In this document: piece by piece, positions 23,180 through 38,306 of the stretch
Layout of the letters: every line of letters starts with the position of its first letter
Position numbering within the stretch: the first letter of the stretch is position 1
Source of the DNA: Picochlorum sp. SENEW3
Taxonomy: Eukaryota
Direction of reading: 5' to 3'
DNA: 64,000 nucleotides
Assembly: GCA_034226945.1 (NCBI GenBank)
Contig: CP120453.1
Location: 1,054,001 to 1,118,000, forward strand
Program-made: the position numbers and the translations under genes
The notes under the pieces: model-generated
What the model was told of the DNA's origin: nothing
Databases searched by the model: none
What the model saw: only the letters and a program-made list of their open reading frames with translations

Positions 23180-25219
23180 TCAAGTACGCGCTACAAAGAA
23201 TTGGTAATCTGGGCAGATGTCTTCACCTTGAAGGTTAGACACTGCATTGTCATGGAAGGGCTGTATTCCAAGGCCCAGTGCCAAGCGTTTGGCACCCTCT
23301 GCAAGCTCTTCCAACTGAATGTCCCATGAGAGTGGGCCTCCTTTAGATATAGGATAGTCCTTCTTCACAACCACGTATCCAGAACTTACACTGACGACAC
23401 ATGCGTTTGTTGAACCTGGCAATGAGTCACCAGATGACAAGCGTGTCTGGTCAGATGCGTTGAGCTTGACCATGGTGTCTGTCCAATTCTCTGCTGGAAG
23501 TCTTCGCCTGTTTATTGAGTTTCCTGTGGATGTGTGCCAGCATAAGCCAACCGGTGGGAGTTCTAATTTTGATAATGAAGCGGTCGACGATATGGTAGTT
23601 GCTGCACAGCTGGCATGCTTTTCCTCATCCTCGTCCTCTTCCTCCACCCTTGAATGGGCCTGAGATGGTGGGCTTGAACTCCCATGCGACGCGGTCACAG
23701 AAGCAGTATCGCTACCTTCATCCGTTTTATCACCTCTCTTGGATGCTCCATTATTCAAATCCCCATGTGTTGTCGGCTCTGACGCATCTGAGCCAGGAAA
23801 TGAGGTCACCCCTTTTGGTGTTGTTGATGATGTGGTGGAGCCATCCTTTCTTCCCATCTCTGGCAGTCGGATATTTGCCTGAGAGTGAAGCGCACTTATT
23901 ATTTTCTGATCAGCCATTCCTTGCATCACTGCTTCCCACAAGGGAGCTATTGAATGGAATGTCAAGAACCTGGCTGTCAGTGGTGCCTCTGGTATCCTGT
24001 ACAGGGGATACCAGGCTACTGCAAACCAACTGTATGGATGCACATCGCCTATTTTCGAGGATGTCAGGACACGTTTCATGCCTTCATCTTCACACAGTTC
24101 CATAATTTGCTGATACAGTGGGAGTCTCTCTCCAACGTGATTTTTGGCCGACCAACTAAAACTTCGCTTCATGTGACTTGGCCAGGCATCCAAACCATCT
24201 CGAAATGAGAGGGCCATATCATCGCTTTCATGTGTTGGCTCAAAGATTTGCACACTTGATAAAAACGGAACGAAAAAGCACGTCGATGGTCCTCGTGGTC
24301 CTCCAAGTGTTGGGCACTTGATGCCATTTGCACTGATCCTCTCAAAATACTTCCAGACATCTAACAGTTTCAAATCTCTCAGAGAGTTGGGATCAGTGCT
24401 GATTCTAAACCGAGGAGTTGCTGCTCTTAGAAACCGTTCCAAGTCTGGTGCATCGTCCTTCTTATCCTCTATTGCTGGAAGGGCGCTACTTGTCCACAAT
24501 CTTCCCAAGGTAGACACTGGTGCAACTGTGCACTCGTTTGGGAGATGCTGACCATCTCCGTGACTGGCTTTCGGTTTAGGCAATGATGGACGACGTCTAT
24601 TCTCCTCACAATTCATCTGTGAAGCTCTGTACAAAACTTTAGGTTCACGATCACGCATCTCATGTCCCATGTCATACTTCACATGCCCATGCTGCTGGGC
24701 AAACATGTCCCATCCAAATGTTGGCACAAATGTCTGCGCCATATATAATGGAGCAGAATTGATTCTTGGCACATGTGATGCATCATAATTTCCGTGATAC
24801 CCCTCTGCATGGTGATATCCATAGGGATAGCCTCCAAACCCATTCACATCGTACTGCACAGCTGTGAAATGATCAGAGCTTCTGGATCGTTGCGTATTAT
24901 TACTGCTTCTCCGATTCCCATGTTTCTTCCGAGAATGATTTTTATTTCCTTTTGATCCGTGCTTTTGTTGCTGCTGATTACGGCTCTGTTCCCTCTGAAC
25001 AGCAGTTTTCACGTCTTCAACTGCCTCGGAGCCTCCAGGCCCTCCAATGCCTGTCTTTACCATGAAATCTACAGAGCAAATCACGCACGAGCTCTCCACC
25101 AGCCCCACTGGAAAAAATCGTTGGCACACGTGTTGTCCTGTATCAGTGTGTACAATTCCTTTCAACTTGCTTGCTGCGAGTGTCTTGCAAAACACAACAG
25201 TCTGCATATCAATGTACAA
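23180..25219 (-). CDS. Plant DUF789 family protein
   Basis: LERFLRAATP, FFVPFLSSVQIF, PLYQQIMEL, HPYSWFAVAWYPLYRIP, FLTFH. True start probably near MVKTG. Confidence 0.85.
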   Translation of the reverse strand: MYIDMQTVVFCKTLAASKLKGIVHTDTGQHVCQRFFPVGLVESSCVICSVDFMVKTGIGGPGGSEAVEDVKTAVQREQSRNQQQQKHGSKGNKNHSRKKHGNRRSSNNTQRSRSSDHFTAVQYDVNGFGGYPYGYHHAEGYHGNYDASHVPRINSAPLYMAQTFVPTFGWDMFAQQHGHVKYDMGHEMRDREPKVLYRASQMNCEENRRRPSLPKPKASHGDGQHLPNECTVAPVSTLGRLWTSSALPAIEDKKDDAPDLERFLRAATPRFRISTDPNSLRDLKLLDVWKYFERISANGIKCPTLGGPRGPSTCFFVPFLSSVQIFEPTHESDDMALSFRDGLDAWPSHMKRSFSWSAKNHVGERLPLYQQIMELCEDEGMKRVLTSSKIGDVHPYSWFAVAWYPLYRIPEAPLTARFLTFHSIAPLWEAVMQGMADQKIISALHSQANIRLPEMGRKDGSTTSSTTPKGVTSFPGSDASEPTTHGDLNNGASKRGDKTDEGSDTASVTASHGSSSPPSQAHSRVEEEDEDEEKHASCAATTISSTASLSKLELPPVGLCWHTSTGNSINRRRLPAENWTDTMVKLNASDQTRLSSGDSLPGSTNACVVSVSSGYVVVKKDYPISKGGPLSWDIQLEELAEGAKRLALGLGIQPFHDNAVSNLQGEDICPDYQFFVART

Positions 25220-29831: not shown

Positions 29832-30368
29832 TTCCGTTAATTCTAGTTCCCAAAGATGTATCCTTTTCCAAAGCAATATAAAATGTGATTTAAAAAGTGG
29901 CTTGAAGCGACAGAAGAGGAGTTGATGTAGCTGTACCCGTGTTCGGCTTCCTGGTCGCGTCGGGGCGAGATTGATCCTGCCCCCAGGATGACGGTCACAA
30001 GGGGGAAGCGGTCTTTGCTCGGATTTGTTCGCTTGTTTTGGCATTGATCAACAGGCACTTCCTCATATATACTAGTCATTAGATGCTGCCATTGAACCCC
30101 GGAGATACGAGTGTAAAGGATACCTGAGGATACCTACTGGAAAGCCGCTTGCTACCCGCTGCCAACAGGCCCAGGTCTCTAGAGATCTGTAGAGATCTGT
30201 CACCGGCATGATGACCACTCTCGAGCCGGTTGCATGTTTGTCTTTCAGGCAAACCATGTCCCCAATTCCCTGCAATACATATCCATTGTGGACAAAAAAC
30301 ATGATGCTGAATAGGACGTGAGGAATCGTATTTGTTTTTTGAAAACGTAGGATATTGGTGGTTGGACC

Positions 30369-32972
30369 ATGCGCACGGTTTGCAGTTTTGAAAGACTGCA
30401 TGCGCTTGGGCATACTCATTCCAACATGGGGTTTTATCGGAAATTTATACACGGTTGCTGCCATAGAAATGGCCTGAGGACGGCTGTGCGTTCGACTTCT
30501 GAGGCTGGGAAAGACCAGTTGGATTTTTCAAATGTTTTGAGTTTCATGTCCTCTGAAGGTATCCAAGGAACCTCATACGATGATACTAGGATTGAAAATG
30601 ACATTATTATGGATATCAAATGCATTGTTTTCGTCAATCGGTGTGCACAGGAGACGATTGTTGTAATTCTACATGAGAAGGACAAGGTGAACCTGAGAAA
30701 GTTGGCAGATCAGTTGCAAGTAAACAGGGATTGCCTATCGATGGCTCCTCGCAATGATTTGGTAAGGCTGGTTGGGTATCCTCAGGGATATGTTCCACCA
30801 TTCGGGCACCTGGATGGTGTGCGCCGTATAGTGGATGAGAGGTTGGTCGCCTCATCAGAGGCGCTGGTGAGGTTTGGCGAGGATGGGAGACGCGTTCTTC
30901 TGCGTCCTGATGATTTGGTGATTGAATCGAGCTCTTTAAATCGAGCATATGTGATGGATGTGAGAGAATATGGGGTACTCAAGGCGGCAAATGATGCCTC
31001 TCTACTGCACCCTCTGCCTTGGTCTGGTGGTGATGAAAACACTCTGGTTGACCTGACTGTTTCGGTTGTGAGAAAACGAAAACTGGCAAAGAGGCTATTG
31101 TTTGCTACTGTAGTCCCTGCAGAGAATAATGATAGCACTTCCACTGCGTTCCGGTTCTGGAGAGGTGGTAGAAAAAGCCTTGTGTGGCAGCACCCTGAGT
31201 TGGCTGTGCCATGTGAGCTTCAATGCATCTTTGGCAAGACATTAGAGAAACGATATGGTACGGCTGTGATGGAGAAAATTCTCAAGAAAATCGTGAAGGG
31301 GGGTTGTGTTCGTGTGGTGGGGCAGCCAAAGAAGAATGTGAAGAATAGCAATGAAACTGTCATAGATCTGGTGATTCATGATGTCAGTTTTGTGTCCCAG
31401 CATGGGCGTCTAGGGAGCAAGTCAGCGCCCACTGCAGTTCAGCCTTTCGTTCCTGTGGGAGAACAGACTCCAGCCCCGATTCCTGCATGGGTTGAGAAGA
31501 AGAGGATGAGGAGGAAGAATCAGCGTGACCCAAACATGCCACTATATGTAAGTTCTGTGACCAATGTCTACATGGTCACCACTGCTGATGATGTAAAAAT
31601 GATGGCAGATACACTTGGATACTATACATGGAAAGAGGGTGGTGGGGTGATTCCTGACAATTTGGAGGAGGGGAAAATGTTCACCTCATGGTATATGAAG
31701 GCATCAAAGGATATGTACCCACCTGTGGGATGGAAACCGCATGCGGTAGTTGCGTTGGATGCAGAATGGCGACCTTCTTCAAAAGAATCTGCTTCTCCAG
31801 TAAGTCTGTTGCAAATAGGAACCCAGGATGAGGGAGTCTTCTTTCTAGTCGATTTGCTTCGTATCTGTCACCTGGACAGACAACAGGACAACAGATTAAC
31901 AGAGGCGCAGATGCTGCTTAGTGATTTTTTCGAGTACATGTTTGGGAATCATAGGATAGTGAAACTTGGTTTCGGGCTGCGATACGATATCAAGCGGATG
32001 GCAGAATCGTACCCATGGATGCCCTGTTTTCAAAAGCAAGGCAAGTGTATCAGGCCCATTTTGTCTCATGTGGACGTCCTGATTCTTGCGCGCCTCTCGA
32101 CCTTTGCACACAGTAATATTGGATTTAAAAAAATTGGGTTGAGTTCATTATGCTCCAAAATTCTGCACAAGTATTTGGAAAAGGAGGAGCAATTGAGTGA
32201 CTGGGGCCAAAGGCCTCTGACAGATAGTCAAAAGGAGTATGCTGTAGCTGATGTTGCTTGCGTTGTGGACATCTATCAAGCCATTATAAATGAATCACCA
32301 GACGTACTGAATAGGAACAACATGGTGCAATGCGCGGCGAATTTGTTTGATTTGGCCGGAACTAGCAGCCACAGAGTCAGGAATACAGGCAGCAATGATG
32401 GGGTATCTTTGTCCCCCGAGGCAGCATATCGCAAACAGGCACCCAAAAAATTGCCTCTTATTGAAGCTGAATGTCGCTTCGATGATGCGCGACAGCAGTG
32501 CTTGGGTCAGCATGTGCCTGGAGGAGGCAAGATGGGCTGTGTACAGATTTGTCTAGGGCCTGAAGAAATTAAATCATACAGAGTCCCACGAGGCGGGGCA
32601 ATGTTGGAGATGTCCAACGCGTTCTTGCTTTTTATAAACGTACCATCGAGAGTGTATCCGAATACATTCGAAATCGGTGAGACTTGCAGGATGAGCTGGT
32701 GGAGCAGCCCAGGACAAACAGAAAAACATCCTCAGATTGAACGGCTACTGAGTGGTACAAAACGCATCATGCTCTTTTGCAGAAAAGAAAAGGAGCATTA
32801 TGTCAACTTGGGTGAATTGAAAGTCGATGCTGTAGAAGAAATGGAGTCGCCGCAAATAAAGGTACTCTTCAGTCTCGAGGACTGCAACAATAATAATATT
32901 GTTTCAACACAGGTTCATGACTACATCCGTGCCGGTGCACCATCGAATGCATCGTCGTCGATAGAATCATGA
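30369..32972 (+). CDS. Multidomain protein: YbaK/ProXp-like + OB-fold + DEDDy 3'-5' exonuclease + DUF3427-like C-terminus
   Basis: GYPQGYVPPFGH (YbaK); VALDAEWRP, LLQIG, QLSDWGQRPLTDSQKEYAVAD (EXD3/Mut-7-type exonuclease). Confidence 0.8.
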   Translation: MRTVCSFERLHALGHTHSNMGFYRKFIHGCCHRNGLRTAVRSTSEAGKDQLDFSNVLSFMSSEGIQGTSYDDTRIENDIIMDIKCIVFVNRCAQETIVVILHEKDKVNLRKLADQLQVNRDCLSMAPRNDLVRLVGYPQGYVPPFGHLDGVRRIVDERLVASSEALVRFGEDGRRVLLRPDDLVIESSSLNRAYVMDVREYGVLKAANDASLLHPLPWSGGDENTLVDLTVSVVRKRKLAKRLLFATVVPAENNDSTSTAFRFWRGGRKSLVWQHPELAVPCELQCIFGKTLEKRYGTAVMEKILKKIVKGGCVRVVGQPKKNVKNSNETVIDLVIHDVSFVSQHGRLGSKSAPTAVQPFVPVGEQTPAPIPAWVEKKRMRRKNQRDPNMPLYVSSVTNVYMVTTADDVKMMADTLGYYTWKEGGGVIPDNLEEGKMFTSWYMKASKDMYPPVGWKPHAVVALDAEWRPSSKESASPVSLLQIGTQDEGVFFLVDLLRICHLDRQQDNRLTEAQMLLSDFFEYMFGNHRIVKLGFGLRYDIKRMAESYPWMPCFQKQGKCIRPILSHVDVLILARLSTFAHSNIGFKKIGLSSLCSKILHKYLEKEEQLSDWGQRPLTDSQKEYAVADVACVVDIYQAIINESPDVLNRNNMVQCAANLFDLAGTSSHRVRNTGSNDGVSLSPEAAYRKQAPKKLPLIEAECRFDDARQQCLGQHVPGGGKMGCVQICLGPEEIKSYRVPRGGAMLEMSNAFLLFINVPSRVYPNTFEIGETCRMSWWSSPGQTEKHPQIERLLSGTKRIMLFCRKEKEHYVNLGELKVDAVEEMESPQIKVLFSLEDCNNNNIVSTQVHDYIRAGAPSNASSSIES

Positions 32973-33157
32973 GTTCCACACTAGATTCAACGCATGAGCG
33001 TGGCATCTTTGCAAAGATCGGAGTATACTCTCCTTGAAATGAAACCTGCCGGTCTCTCAAGCAAAGGGAGGAAATCTGCCCCTTGGAATCAGGTAGGGTT
33101 CTTCATGGGCCGACTGTCTAATCTGTGTCTTATTCATTACTATTTTTTGAAATTGAT

Positions 33158-35107: not shown

Positions 35108-36143
35108 CTATGAATCAAACCGTGTGACAAGAGGCACACCAGAGCAATTATCTAAAAGGTCATCAGCAGAAGATTCCTGAGGCATTTTGTGCCCAATGTG
35201 GCGGAGTCCAATATCATTTGTCAAGAGTAATCGAATAGGCCTCTTAAACATGTGCTGGCGAATCTTCACACCAGCAAGTGCCAACAACTTTTTCGATGCA
35301 GCATACTGATCGGCCAGCCTGCACAACAAAGCAGCATAGCATTCCAATCAGTCATCATATAAGAAATGTAACAGCAAAAATAGAGCATCACACACGACGC
35401 ACCGAAATTTTCCCGTCCCAGGAGTCTCTGCTTTTGGCTGAGCTTTATCCTCGTGGAAAATAATCTCTGCAATTCCAGCTTGAATCATCAGTTTGGCACA
35501 CTCATTGCAAGGGAACATGGTCACATATACTTTTGATCCCACTACAGACGCCCCATTCTTGTTCAGGATAGCATTCATCTCGGCATGGCATACGTAGGGA
35601 TACTTGGTATCCAGCTTGCTTCCATTTCGTGACAACTTGGCCCAGGGCAATTTTGAATCTGGGCACCCTCGGGGAAACCCATTGTATCCGATACCACATA
35701 TCACATTGTTCTGATCCACAATACATGCCCCAACTTGCTTATTAGGATCTTTACTTCGCTGAGAGCTCAGATATGCCACAGCCATGAAATAGTCATCCCA
35801 AGACAAGTAACTGCAATGATCACCGATCTGTTACACCACCATTCTTAGACACCGCATTCAATTAATGGTCAACGTACTCAGATCTAGGTCTTGGATCATA
35901 GGGATCTGCTCGACGCCCCGACCTACCGCCCTCGCATGAATTTGAATTCGTGCTTGTCGATGCCAACTTGTCAGGAGAATCACAATACGCCGGATTCTCG
36001 TACTGAATAGTCATAGGTTCATTAGGTGTTCTATTAGAACGAGTATCGCCGTTATATTTTACAATCGCGTACGTCACTGCCGCAGAGGACAGGGCAGCAG
36101 CAGCAGCAACAGTCCCAAACGCTACTAGATTTGACTGTTCCAT
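35108..36143 (-). CDS. DCTD: dCMP deaminase, 3 exons
   Basis: Introns 35877-35811 and about 35402-35319; [36 protein letters not shown]. Confidence 0.92.
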
Positions 36144-36191: not shown

Positions 36192-38306
36192 TCAAGGCGA
36201 TGGACGGGGTATTATTGTTTTCTTTTCTTTATCCCACGAGGCAGCAGTTTTCAAATCCAAATGAGTGTATCTGACAGAGCCAATCAACCTTTCAGGCAGC
36301 TCATCTGGCGCTTGGCCTTCAATAAGGGGCGATAGATCAACAACTAACGATGTGATTGAATTGACAACGAGCTTTGTGACATTATTTGCCACAGTATTAC
36401 TCGTGATGTCCACATCCATTTCAAAATAGGAGCACCCCTTTGCCGTTCTCCCTCTAAAATATTTGGAACTGAGTTTTTGCCCAAGCAATACTGGAGTCGT
36501 TCCAACGCTTTGTCTCACAACCCACGAGCCTTTCGCGACCCGAGGAATCAGTTTGAATTTTTTATTGCGTCTCTCATCATCTACAGCGTCGTCTCCCTGG
36601 ACCCACTCTCTGAAATTCTTAAAAAATGCTCTCAGTGATCCATCAACATCTTCTTCTGGCCAGTTTGCCAGCAATGTATCTATGTTTTCTTCCGTCGGAT
36701 CCACCGGACAAGTCCATACAGTCACAAGAGACTGGAGAGGATTATTTGGAAAGACAAGGTTGAGCACGAATGCATACGGCGCATCACAGAATTGCACCGA
36801 GGGCAGGTTTGCACCCACATGGAACAAGACCTGGTCACTGTCTATCAAATCACTGCTATACAATTCAAACACTGGTGATCTCGCCTGAACCTTGATCTTA
36901 TCTTGTAGATACGTTTTGCCTCTAATTTTGAGAAAATTGAAGCCAGGATACGACCAAAACCGCTTCTCGCAGCACCCTTGCTTTCCAAACACAGAGAGCG
37001 ATGTTCTGTGAATCGTCTCCTGCCTCCTCTGCTTCATCGATGCGGATGATTCCGAGTAGTCTATCCAAGTTTTAGAAATGTGTTCATGTGTTTCTTCTTC
37101 TAGCATATCTTCCTTCTCGTCATGCGAAAGCATCGATGGCATGACAGTAAACCGACTCTGTTCCAACCTATCCCGCAACAGAATGAGACTCATGAGCAAT
37201 GGCTCCATCACCTTCATTCGAACATACGCAAACAAGAATGGAAACAGTCGAGAAAATATCCCATTATTTGTCAACCAGCCTCCAGCATCAGCTTTCACCA
37301 CCAATGTCACAAGAGACTCTTGTGACAATTGCTCCTCATGATGGATATACTCATTCCTGAGGGGTGCAATCGTAAACCCTGCCGCAATAACATTGGCCCT
37401 CACCCCATGTGTCTCCGACGCCCCATACAAATCATCTTCAGGAACAGCCTGATACACGATGACATACGTTCCATCATCATCCTTCCTCCACGTCCTCTGC
37501 AGGACAGATTCACGGGGTGAAAAGAAAAATCCTCCCATCATGTTTGACAACCCCCATTTGATCTTTACTATCGACGTGAACGTATCAATACGTTTCAACA
37601 CCTCTACCGAATCTGCAAACGCCATCGTCCCTCCTACTTTCGAACTCTGATACCCACCAGACAAGAGACTCTTGAGGCATGCCCGAGGAGTTGACCGAAT
37701 CACCACTGATGACATCACCGCAGCATTCCCATCCAAATTATGTTCGCGAGCCTCCGTATAAATCGAAATACCGTTTATATGCAGAAATGTATTCCAAAGA
37801 TTCTCAGCATCCTGCTCTTCCCGGGACACGTGCCGCGATACCACCTCTGGCATACAAAACCGTGCCAGCACCTCCTTCCACGCAACAGCCTGGCCTCGAT
37901 CCTCAAAACACAACCGCAGTACACTCTTCTTCCAGGGCACACTATCCTCAGAGAAACACATGACGATCGAATACATATCAATGGTATCCTTGGAAGAATC
38001 CTGAAGAGTATATCGCCGTAAACCATGCTCATCGAATGAGACACCCACACTAGAATCCACCTGACACGTCTCCCCTTCACCCGAGTGTTTCTTCTTCGTC
38101 CGAACCACCCCAGCATCCGTATGAGGCATTAAGACAAGCCTAGCAGTATTCGTTGATGGTTTATGTTCAATTCTTCCATGCTTTCTCTTCACATATCCAT
38201 CCAATACGTGAGATTCGGCAAACACTGTTCCTGACACTAATTCGACGAATCCATCTAATCCTCCTCCTCCTCCTTCGCCTAATGGTCTATGATTCGTATC
38301 AGTCAT
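36192..38306 (-). CDS. EDR2-like protein (PH-like, START, DUF1336)
   Basis: START-like WRKDDDGTYVIVY; C-terminal IRGKTYLQDKIK, FKLIPRVAKGSWVVRQSVG, ELPERLIG. Confidence 0.88.
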   Translation of the reverse strand: MTDTNHRPLGEGGGGGLDGFVELVSGTVFAESHVLDGYVKRKHGRIEHKPSTNTARLVLMPHTDAGVVRTKKKHSGEGETCQVDSSVGVSFDEHGLRRYTLQDSSKDTIDMYSIVMCFSEDSVPWKKSVLRLCFEDRGQAVAWKEVLARFCMPEVVSRHVSREEQDAENLWNTFLHINGISIYTEAREHNLDGNAAVMSSVVIRSTPRACLKSLLSGGYQSSKVGGTMAFADSVEVLKRIDTFTSIVKIKWGLSNMMGGFFFSPRESVLQRTWRKDDDGTYVIVYQAVPEDDLYGASETHGVRANVIAAGFTIAPLRNEYIHHEEQLSQESLVTLVVKADAGGWLTNNGIFSRLFPFLFAYVRMKVMEPLLMSLILLRDRLEQSRFTVMPSMLSHDEKEDMLEEETHEHISKTWIDYSESSASMKQRRQETIHRTSLSVFGKQGCCEKRFWSYPGFNFLKIRGKTYLQDKIKVQARSPVFELYSSDLIDSDQVLFHVGANLPSVQFCDAPYAFVLNLVFPNNPLQSLVTVWTCPVDPTEENIDTLLANWPEEDVDGSLRAFFKNFREWVQGDDAVDDERRNKKFKLIPRVAKGSWVVRQSVGTTPVLLGQKLSSKYFRGRTAKGCSYFEMDVDITSNTVANNVTKLVVNSITSLVVDLSPLIEGQAPDELPERLIGSVRYTHLDLKTAASWDKEKKTIIPRPSP

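Follow-up and report, generated by a model that had tools for sequence, protein, structure and literature searches.

A Picochlorum gene encoding a YbaK-type editing domain, an OB fold, a Mut-7-type exonuclease and an SRA-like domain in one chain

The reading frame and its domains

Within a 64,000-nucleotide (nt) stretch of the Picochlorum sp. SENEW3 genome (GCA_034226945.1, contig CP120453.1, positions 1,054,001 to 1,118,000 of the forward strand; hereafter the window) lies an open reading frame (ORF) whose product, P0001, combines a YbaK-superfamily editing domain, an OB fold, a DEDDy 3'-5' exonuclease and a C-terminal domain of SRA fold. The frame is uninterrupted through 867 codons. By arithmetic from the base composition (~46% G+C, a value that holds all along the window), a frame of this length would stay open by chance with a probability of ~1e-20. 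An initial annotation, made from the DNA letters and their translations, had proposed such a set of modules in one uninterrupted ORF of 867 amino acids (aa). The ORF listing and the translation agree with it, and all ten of the motif strings that it quoted are located in P0001 at the expected residues: DIKCIVF (81-87), GYPQGYVPPFGH (136-147), VSVVRKRKLAKRLLFATV (231-248), GGCVRVVG (311-318), DAE (464-466), YAVAD (624-628), YPNTFE (763-768), MSWWS (775-779), IMLFCR (800-805) and YVNLG (811-815). Table 1 collects the coordinates of the features.

Table 1. Features of the P0001 locus, in positions of the window.
Feature	Position	Strand	Basis or remarks
Whole ORF, protein P0001	30369..32972	+	867 codons and stop, ATG start; ORF listing and translation
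N-terminal extension, residues 1-49	30369..30515	+	Unconserved, net basic; may be a targeting peptide
YbaK-superfamily aminoacyl-tRNA editing (tRNA_edit) domain, residues ~50-200	30516..30968	+	Pfam, PDB profile, alignments
OB-fold nucleic-acid-binding domain, residues ~226-345	31044..31403	+	Predicted structure, fold searches; basic first strand VVRKRKLAKR
Basic cluster KKRMRRKNQR, residues 377-386, OB-exonuclease linker	31497..31526	+	Alignment of relatives
Mut-7/Nibbler-type DEDDy 3'-5' exonuclease, residues ~400-655	31566..32333	+	D464, E466, D540, Y624, D628
SRA-fold, DUF3427-like domain, residues ~700-850	32466..32918	+	Predicted structure, fold searches, sub-threshold Pfam
Stretch under a single contig of run X2	30293..33112	+	2817 nt, no joint; 70 other letters, 4 gaps
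DUF789 gene	23180-25219	-	Domain scan of neighbours
START + EDR2_C gene	36192-38306	-	Domain scan of neighbours

A word-indexed search recovered 16 full-length relatives of P0001, at 31-96% identity, together with two more distant matches. The 16 align end to end (alignment A1), and 15 of them are annotated with both tRNA_edit and an exonuclease, P0016 with the exonuclease only.

YbaK-family domains cleave the ester joining an amino acid to the terminal adenosine of tRNA, and YbaK-type editing factors are small free-standing proteins that clear mischarged tRNA. In P0001, Pfam tRNA_edit (PF04073) is matched at residues 83-183 (E 5.2e-15; 56 bits against a gathering cutoff of 25.5), as it is in 17/17 aligned relatives. 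When a profile of the N-terminal half was searched against the PDB, the solved proteins 3op6 (E 5.7e-10), APE2540 (1wdv, 7e-10) and TTHA1699 (2cx5, 8e-10) came first, with Escherichia coli YbaK (2dxa) at 1e-6 and Haemophilus influenzae YbaK (1dbu) at 5e-6; ProRS INS domains and ProXp-ala were far weaker (E 0.16-0.4). In the profile alignments K84 lines up with the conserved lysine of the trans-editing proteins 3op6, 1wdv and 2cx5, and GYPQGYVPPFGH, a GYPxGxVPPFGH loop, lines up with their Gly/Pro loop. P0001 thus keeps Lys84, where the core strand starts, as well as the Gly-rich G-x-x-x-P loop, the substrate-loop residues being G136-x3-G140-x2-P143-P144-x-G146. The Pfam score and these two alignments bear out the YbaK domain that had been read from motifs. 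These solved factors share the domain family with P0001, and the lysine and the Gly/Pro loop align. They are single-domain proteins of about 150-170 aa, whereas the domain of P0001 is the N-terminal module of an 867-aa chain.

The exonuclease is recognised by Pfam DNA_pol_A_exo1 (PF01612) at residues 458-641 (E 2.8e-17; 63.5 bits, cutoff 23.6). Its catalytic residues D464, E466, D540, Y624 and D628 are invariant in A1, and in the wider family, among sequences with a residue at the position, they are kept in 129/129, 128/129, 136/137, 138/138 and 138/138 cases, respectively. The initial annotation had described a DEDDy exonuclease with its acidic residues intact, and so it appears from Pfam and these five residues. 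A family profile placed a Mut-7 homologue first among PDB sequences (7jw2, E 2.6e-21; 7jw6, E 1.4e-15), with Pol I and WRN (~1e-9, the next family at 1.3e-9), NrnC, RNase D and Rrp6 trailing; the DxE, D and Yx3D motifs line up with those of the Mut-7 homologue and WRN. The Mut-7/Nibbler/EXD3 group is therefore the closest exonuclease family. An NCBIfam scan of P0001 gave an RNase D match below its cutoff, and PADLOC gave a weak BrxHI match to the last exonuclease motif (E 2e-6 to 6e-8) and one JetD match (E 0.012). Mut7-C (PF01927) had no match at E<=1 in P0001 and did not occur among the families listed for 17 relatives. Compared with canonical Mut-7, P0001 thus lacks Mut7-C, carries an SRA-fold domain C-terminally in its place, and has YbaK and OB domains added at the N-terminal side. 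Mut-7-type nucleases are known from RNA silencing, and DEDD exonucleases in general require a free 3'-OH end.

The C-terminal domain was characterised by its predicted structure. SRA and DUF3427 domains are readers of methylated DNA. Residues 685-867 were predicted alone, with an alignment (A3, 40 rows) to full-length relatives, and gave a model with a predicted local distance difference test (pLDDT) score of 90.8. An exhaustive structural aligner returned SauUSI first (7clg, chain 803-953; Z 11.7, root-mean-square deviation 2.3, 112 residues), then SUVH5 (Z 10.8), KRYPTONITE (9.4), TagI (8.8) and NP95/UHRF1 (8.4); the best 15 matches are all of SRA type with Z of at least 7.7, and the next stands at Z 5.2. 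Foldseek likewise gave SauUSI first (E 7e-5), followed by AspBHI, LpnPI, SUVH5, SUVH6, MspJI and UHRF1. Atlas feature and structure searches found DUF3427, SRA, ScoMcrA and AspBHI clusters, the structure rows named DUF3427 having template-modelling (TM) scores of 0.64-0.70 to the domain. Residues conserved in the family are F755, N757, Y763, N765, W777, R805, Y811 (Y/F) and G815. The DUF3427/SRA-like nature claimed for the tail is thus supported by the fold, with SauUSI at its head, and by sub-threshold DUF3427 matches detailed below. In SauUSI, residues 806-953, the DUF3427 region, form a target-recognition domain of SRA fold (PMC7913695, PMC6765204), and PMC7913695 describes a pocket for a flipped 5-methylcytosine (5mC) with aromatic stacking and an Asp or other polar contact. 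The fold of the P0001 domain is common to SauUSI (Z 11.7) and the other SRA-type readers (Z 7.7-10.8), a group that takes in SUVH5/6, KRYPTONITE, UHRF1, TagI, AspBHI, LpnPI, MspJI, ScoMcrA, AbaSI and PvuRts1I. The known readers recognise a modified cytosine or a phosphorothioate in duplex DNA, and their fusion partners are endonucleases, helicases or enzymes acting on chromatin; in P0001 the reader-like domain is instead joined to a deacylase and a 3' exonuclease, and in a eukaryote.

Some further observations concern this domain. A conserved VPGGGK, within VPGGGKMG at residues 709-716 (32493-32516, +), stands directly before the SRA-like core. It is the cause of the only match of a C-terminal profile (A5) among PDB sequences, a tau repeat (E 3e-4), which we rejected as spurious because the VPGGGK motif is common to both. 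PADLOC gave no match to the domain. The top Atlas structure row, for residues 693-855, is a eukaryotic cluster of 265 members, unnamed proteins of ~310 aa with a TM of 0.82 by query, whose commonest phylum is Bacillariophyta. Judging from these models, the SRA-like module may also occur outside green algae, in another context.

Between the two catalytic domains lies a segment that the initial annotation had likened to the anticodon-binding domains of aminoacyl-tRNA synthetases (aaRS). Residues 205-350, predicted alone with an alignment (A2, 42 rows) to full-length relatives, form a five-strand barrel (pLDDT 84.2) of order E-E-E-H-E-E, with a helix between strands 3 and 4. Foldseek gave 96 PDB matches at E<=1e-3, with LysRS at the top (E 1e-4, TM by query 0.50), then AsnRS and bacterial single-stranded-DNA-binding proteins (SSBs). 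With the exhaustive aligner, the best were the OB fold of PolC (Z 9.5), AsnRS (9.3), the N-domain of AspRS (8.8), MCM (8.7-8.8) and LysRS (8.6); 22 chains reached Z>=8, and among the matches listed they are OB folds throughout. An OB fold is therefore well founded. Its synthetase character stands less firmly. The N-domains of AsnRS, AspRS and LysRS rank high among the matches (Z 9.3-8.0) and the helix between strands 3 and 4 is shared with these class IIb enzymes; in addition, 29/30 Atlas matches by language-model features were tRNA_anti-codon clusters (score 0.90). However, aaRS, PolC and MCM matches are tied, because all fall within one Z unit, and this segment of P0001 had no match to any Pfam family at E<=1; tRNA_anti-codon (PF01336) was likewise absent at that level from the relatives. 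Unlike the class IIb domains, that of P0001 fits PolC, MCM, SSB and RPA equally, and anticodon binding is not implied. The model thus points to a nucleic-acid-binding OB fold, for which an aaRS-like reading would be allowed without being singled out.

Outside these domains, the protein is variable. The N-terminal residues 1-49 have 11% mean identity to distant relatives and hold 8 K/R and 5 H against 3 D/E, a composition that is presequence-like in most relatives. This N-terminus, initially called transit-like, is thus unconserved and net basic and may be a targeting peptide. A second in-frame ATG lies at 30426 (+), residue 20, and the 79%-identical relative P0004 begins at the equivalent Met, which leaves the true start, and hence the length of any targeting peptide, uncertain. 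In the otherwise variable linker between OB fold and exonuclease, a 10-residue segment with 5-7 K/R is found in 17/17 aligned relatives. This cluster would equally suit a nuclear signal, and the organellar location proposed initially is putative.

Conservation of the fusion and evidence for a single gene

We searched 1.84 billion representative sequences and found 1395 proteins at E<=1e-3, 30 of them at E<=1e-30. Four domain hidden Markov models (HMMs), built from A1 columns, were then used to score the architectures of the best 150 cluster representatives. The full order YbaK-OB-EXO-SRA (EXO being the exonuclease and SRA the SRA-like domain) was the most frequent at 41/150, followed by YbaK-OB-EXO (30/150), EXO only (24/150), EXO-SRA (13/150), OB-EXO (10/150), YbaK-EXO-SRA (8/150), OB-EXO-SRA (7/150), YbaK-OB (6/150), YbaK-EXO (5/150), EXO-YbaK (4/150) and SRA only (2/150). 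YbaK and EXO occur together in 88/150 of these. Many partial forms start or stop inside a domain (e.g. P0022 and P0023) and are probably truncated contigs. Of 35 hand-picked from the 150, 18 have both tRNA_edit and the exonuclease according to Pfam. Taken with the 16 end-to-end relatives, these counts sustain the initial claim of a one-chain architecture.

Mean identity between P0001 and 13 distant members of A1 was 47% for the OB segment, 46.5% for the SRA-like segment, 44% for the exonuclease and 32% for the YbaK domain, compared with 11-26% for the linkers and N-terminus and 6% for the C-terminal tail. Therefore, constraint on the OB and SRA-like domains is no weaker than on the catalytic ones. 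The named members are all chlorophytes (Picochlorum, Parachlorella kessleri, Micractinium tetrahymenae, Pleodorina starrii, Scenedesmus sp., Pedinophyceae sp. and Ostreobium quekettii), and their sources annotate them as hypothetical, '3'-5' exonuclease domain-containing', 'EXD3' or 'mut-7 homolog'. Re-searches that used either the C-terminal region by itself or a profile of 19 sequences returned only known relatives together with P0200 and P0201. A viral contig collection gave fourteen pattern matches, none of which was confirmed, and there was no sign of a giant-virus copy in it. In P0018, P0064, P0075, P0083, P0107 and P0150, ankyrin repeats stand upstream of the OB or exonuclease part.

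The pairing of editing domain and nuclease also recurs in a different arrangement. In P0154/P0205 (Ostreobium quekettii) and P0155 the order is EXO-tRNA_edit-Mut7-C, and the family HMMs detected neither OB nor SRA-like domains there. Moreover, according to one sentence in a classification paper, the Mut7 proteins of Saprolegnia and Aphanomyces contain, beside their two usual domains, one for aminoacyl-tRNA editing (PMC5499597). All of these, like P0001, hold a Mut-7-type exonuclease and tRNA_edit in one chain; they differ in that the exonuclease comes first and Mut7-C last.

That the ORF is one gene is supported by transcript-type contigs as well as by its conserved full-length relatives. A single joint-free contig of run X2 covers it whole and extends 76 nt upstream of the ATG and 140 nt past the stop. 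Its likeness to the window is 97.5%, so it derives from a close relative and not from the strain itself. X2 contigs trace single genes, and in the minus-strand dCMP-deaminase gene nearby they skip 84 nt (35317 to 35402) with ends CT..AC, that is GT..AG on the gene's own strand. Because of this spliced skip we take X2 as RNA, the label of the run being a guess only. The skip is a spliceosomal intron of the dCMP-deaminase-like gene, and the ORF listed at 35348..35806 (-) is consequently only part of that gene. The contigs cannot fix transcript ends, and gaps in X2 cover, such as the intergenic stretch 5' of the ORF, were not used as evidence. The labelled RNA libraries X10 and X11 gave short contigs on parts of the ORF only (likeness 88-95% for X10) and indicate at most the presence of related transcripts. 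We looked in the contigs for separate transcripts of the kind that would have split the gene and saw none. The direct observations are the domains with their catalytic motifs, the fact that the fusion is conserved, and the RNA-type contigs lying over the ORF. Within the X2-covered stretch there is also an upstream ORF of six codons (ATG ATG CTG AAT AGG ACG TGA; 30301-30321, +), 48 nt 5' of the main ATG and in another frame.

The window is packed with genes, with long unbroken ORFs on either strand, and contains no tRNA genes. The neighbouring ORFs are unrelated in function: a DUF789 protein, a MatE transporter, a trypsin-like protease, a peptidase of M1/leukotriene-A4-hydrolase type, a dCMP deaminase and a START + EDR2_C protein. 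DUF789 and EDR2_C (as START + EDR2_C) are families associated with plants and green algae, and the neighbours give the locus a green-lineage flavour. Taken together, the gene is real and expressed, lacks introns and belongs to the nuclear genome of a chlorophyte-type alga of the green lineage; it encodes a conserved four-domain enzyme.

Possible function at an aminoacylated 3' end

The simplest reading of the conserved fusion of deacylase and exonuclease is that the two act in sequence on an aminoacylated 3' end, first deacylating and then trimming it, with the OB fold and basic linker holding the substrate and the SRA-like domain selecting it. We hold this reading with middling confidence. 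The YbaK domain would hydrolyse the ester that holds the amino acid on the terminal adenosine, either of an aminoacyl-tRNA or of some other tRNA-like, aminoacylated 3' end, and the freed 3'-OH would pass to the adjacent exonuclease, which could trim the CCA end or further. The OB fold and the basic cluster of the linker would hold the nucleic acid. By recognising a flipped base, the SRA-like domain may select or gate the substrate; its pocket probably accommodates a flipped-out pyrimidine that may carry a methyl group. Particular tRNAs, or RNAs derived from tRNA, would thereby be removed or inactivated in a regulated way. The strongest argument that the YbaK domain and the exonuclease work on one substrate is that their pairing recurs in another order and without the SRA-like domain.

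Several findings weigh against this reading. On the deacylase side, P0001 scores 36.9 bits with the NCBIfam equivalog TIGR00011 (YbaK_EbsC), whose cutoff is 153.25. Moreover, of the 76 sequences in the wider family that have a residue in the K84 column, 51 have K, 21 have N and 4 have another residue. Since Asn replaces Lys in 21/76, deacylase activity may not be universal, and the Asn-bearing sequences may mark a subgroup whose deacylase is inactive or altered. For the OB domain, the Atlas structure rows are SSB, and the model suits the OB folds of PolC, MCM and SSB as well as those of aaRS. At the C-terminus, Pfam DUF3427 (PF11907) is matched below threshold at residues 753-826 (E 0.0059; 16.4 bits against 27.7) and, at E<=1, in 8/17 relatives, with a best E of 1.2e-5 and a top score of 25.2 bits (P0014), still under the cutoff of 27.7. 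The A5 profile found no SauUSI or SRA chain among PDB sequences, and the solved relatives of the domain all read 5mC, 5-hydroxymethylcytosine (5hmC) or phosphorothioate in DNA. The full-length Atlas model is poor (predicted TM score 0.38), and our own models cover the OB and C-terminal segments. Lastly, which substrate is bound, in what order the reactions run, what the reader domain does and where in the cell the protein works are all inferred.

The kinship of the exonuclease suggests another function. P0001 could be a Mut-7/Nibbler-like nuclease of small RNAs or silencing that trims the 3' ends of small RNAs, with the SRA-like domain tethering it to methylated DNA or chromatin and the YbaK and OB domains handling tRNA-derived precursors or serving as co-opted RNA-end binders. 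The closest solved exonuclease relative is indeed a Mut-7 homologue (7jw2), and two sources label members of the family 'exonuclease mut-7 homolog' and 'EXD3'. Moreover, the C-terminal fold is that of the SUVH/UHRF1 SRA domains (Z 10.8-8.4), placed where canonical Mut-7 has Mut7-C, and the conserved K/R cluster could be a nuclear signal. However, this explanation gives no reason for keeping a deacylase with an intact Lys and loop, the YbaK-exonuclease pairing also occurs where the SRA domain is absent, and the explanation draws on roles of Mut-7 and Nibbler taken from the literature. We regard it as unlikely.

A DNA-directed enzyme is the other function to be weighed. Here the SRA-like domain would read 5mC or 5hmC in DNA, possibly organellar, the OB fold would bind single strands and the DEDDy domain would resect 3' DNA ends for repair or selective degradation, leaving the YbaK domain regulatory or vestigial. 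The best 15 structural relatives of the C-terminal domain are all readers of DNA modification, and the OB model resembles SSB, PolC, MCM and RPA. The DEDDy family also takes in WRN and the Pol I proofreading domains (~1e-9), and the N-terminus is presequence-like by composition. Set against this, the exonuclease is nearer to Mut-7 than to the DNA exonucleases by 12 orders of magnitude in E-value, the YbaK motifs are under conservation, and the fusion of YbaK with a Mut-7-type nuclease recurs independently of the SRA domain. We therefore consider a DNA substrate distinctly improbable. Finally, partial domain sets such as YbaK-OB and EXO-SRA might hint at an annotation or assembly artefact that reads through two or more neighbouring genes, which we reject as extremely improbable given the absence of a stop across the frame, the identical order in 41 independent cluster representatives, the end-to-end relatives, the spanning 2817-nt contig and the many partial forms that are cut inside domains, as truncated contigs would be.

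A more novel reading may also be sketched, to which we give little credence. P0001 would be a tRNA decommissioning enzyme gated by modification, the RNA-directed equivalent of modification-dependent restriction. Its SRA-like domain would flip out a pyrimidine, methylated or not, of a tRNA stem or of a tRNA-template duplex, and this would license stripping by the YbaK domain and CCA removal by the Mut-7-type nuclease. The tRNAs so disabled would be chosen ones, such as tRNA primers of retroelements or the aminoacylated tRNA-like ends of viral RNAs. If that were true, a 'mutator' family of silencing nucleases would be tied directly to the tRNA 3' end.

Novelty and meaning of the architecture

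Full-text searches, which miss most papers in subscription journals, found no description of the four-domain algal architecture, nor any paper on YbaK with mut-7 or on a YbaK-exonuclease in Chlamydomonas. None of the matches listed for EXD3 with tRNA concerned a YbaK-OB-EXO-SRA protein, and the DUF3427 literature, judging by its listings, deals with bacterial restriction or unrelated topics. The initial view that the architecture is uncharacterised fits these searches; it has to be qualified by the single sentence on oomycete fusions of Mut7 with tRNA editing (PMC5499597). P0001 stands outside YbaK proper, canonical Mut-7 and DUF3427, because it lacks one defining feature of each.

In summary, a YbaK-type deacylase domain, a Mut-7-type nuclease, an SRA/DUF3427-like domain and an OB fold are fused in a protein that is conserved across several green-algal classes. 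The conserved fusion suggests a pathway that couples removal of an amino acid to the destruction or trimming of a 3' end, and a base modification may gate it. Should tRNA be the substrate, P0001 would be a new type of eukaryotic enzyme for tRNA turnover or regulation and would contain the first DUF3427/SRA reader linked to RNA. Should it be DNA or small RNA instead, what a conserved deacylase domain does there would itself be new. Moreover, the pairing of YbaK with Mut-7 in algae and oomycetes offers a testable clue to the substrate of the Mut-7/EXD3 nucleases.

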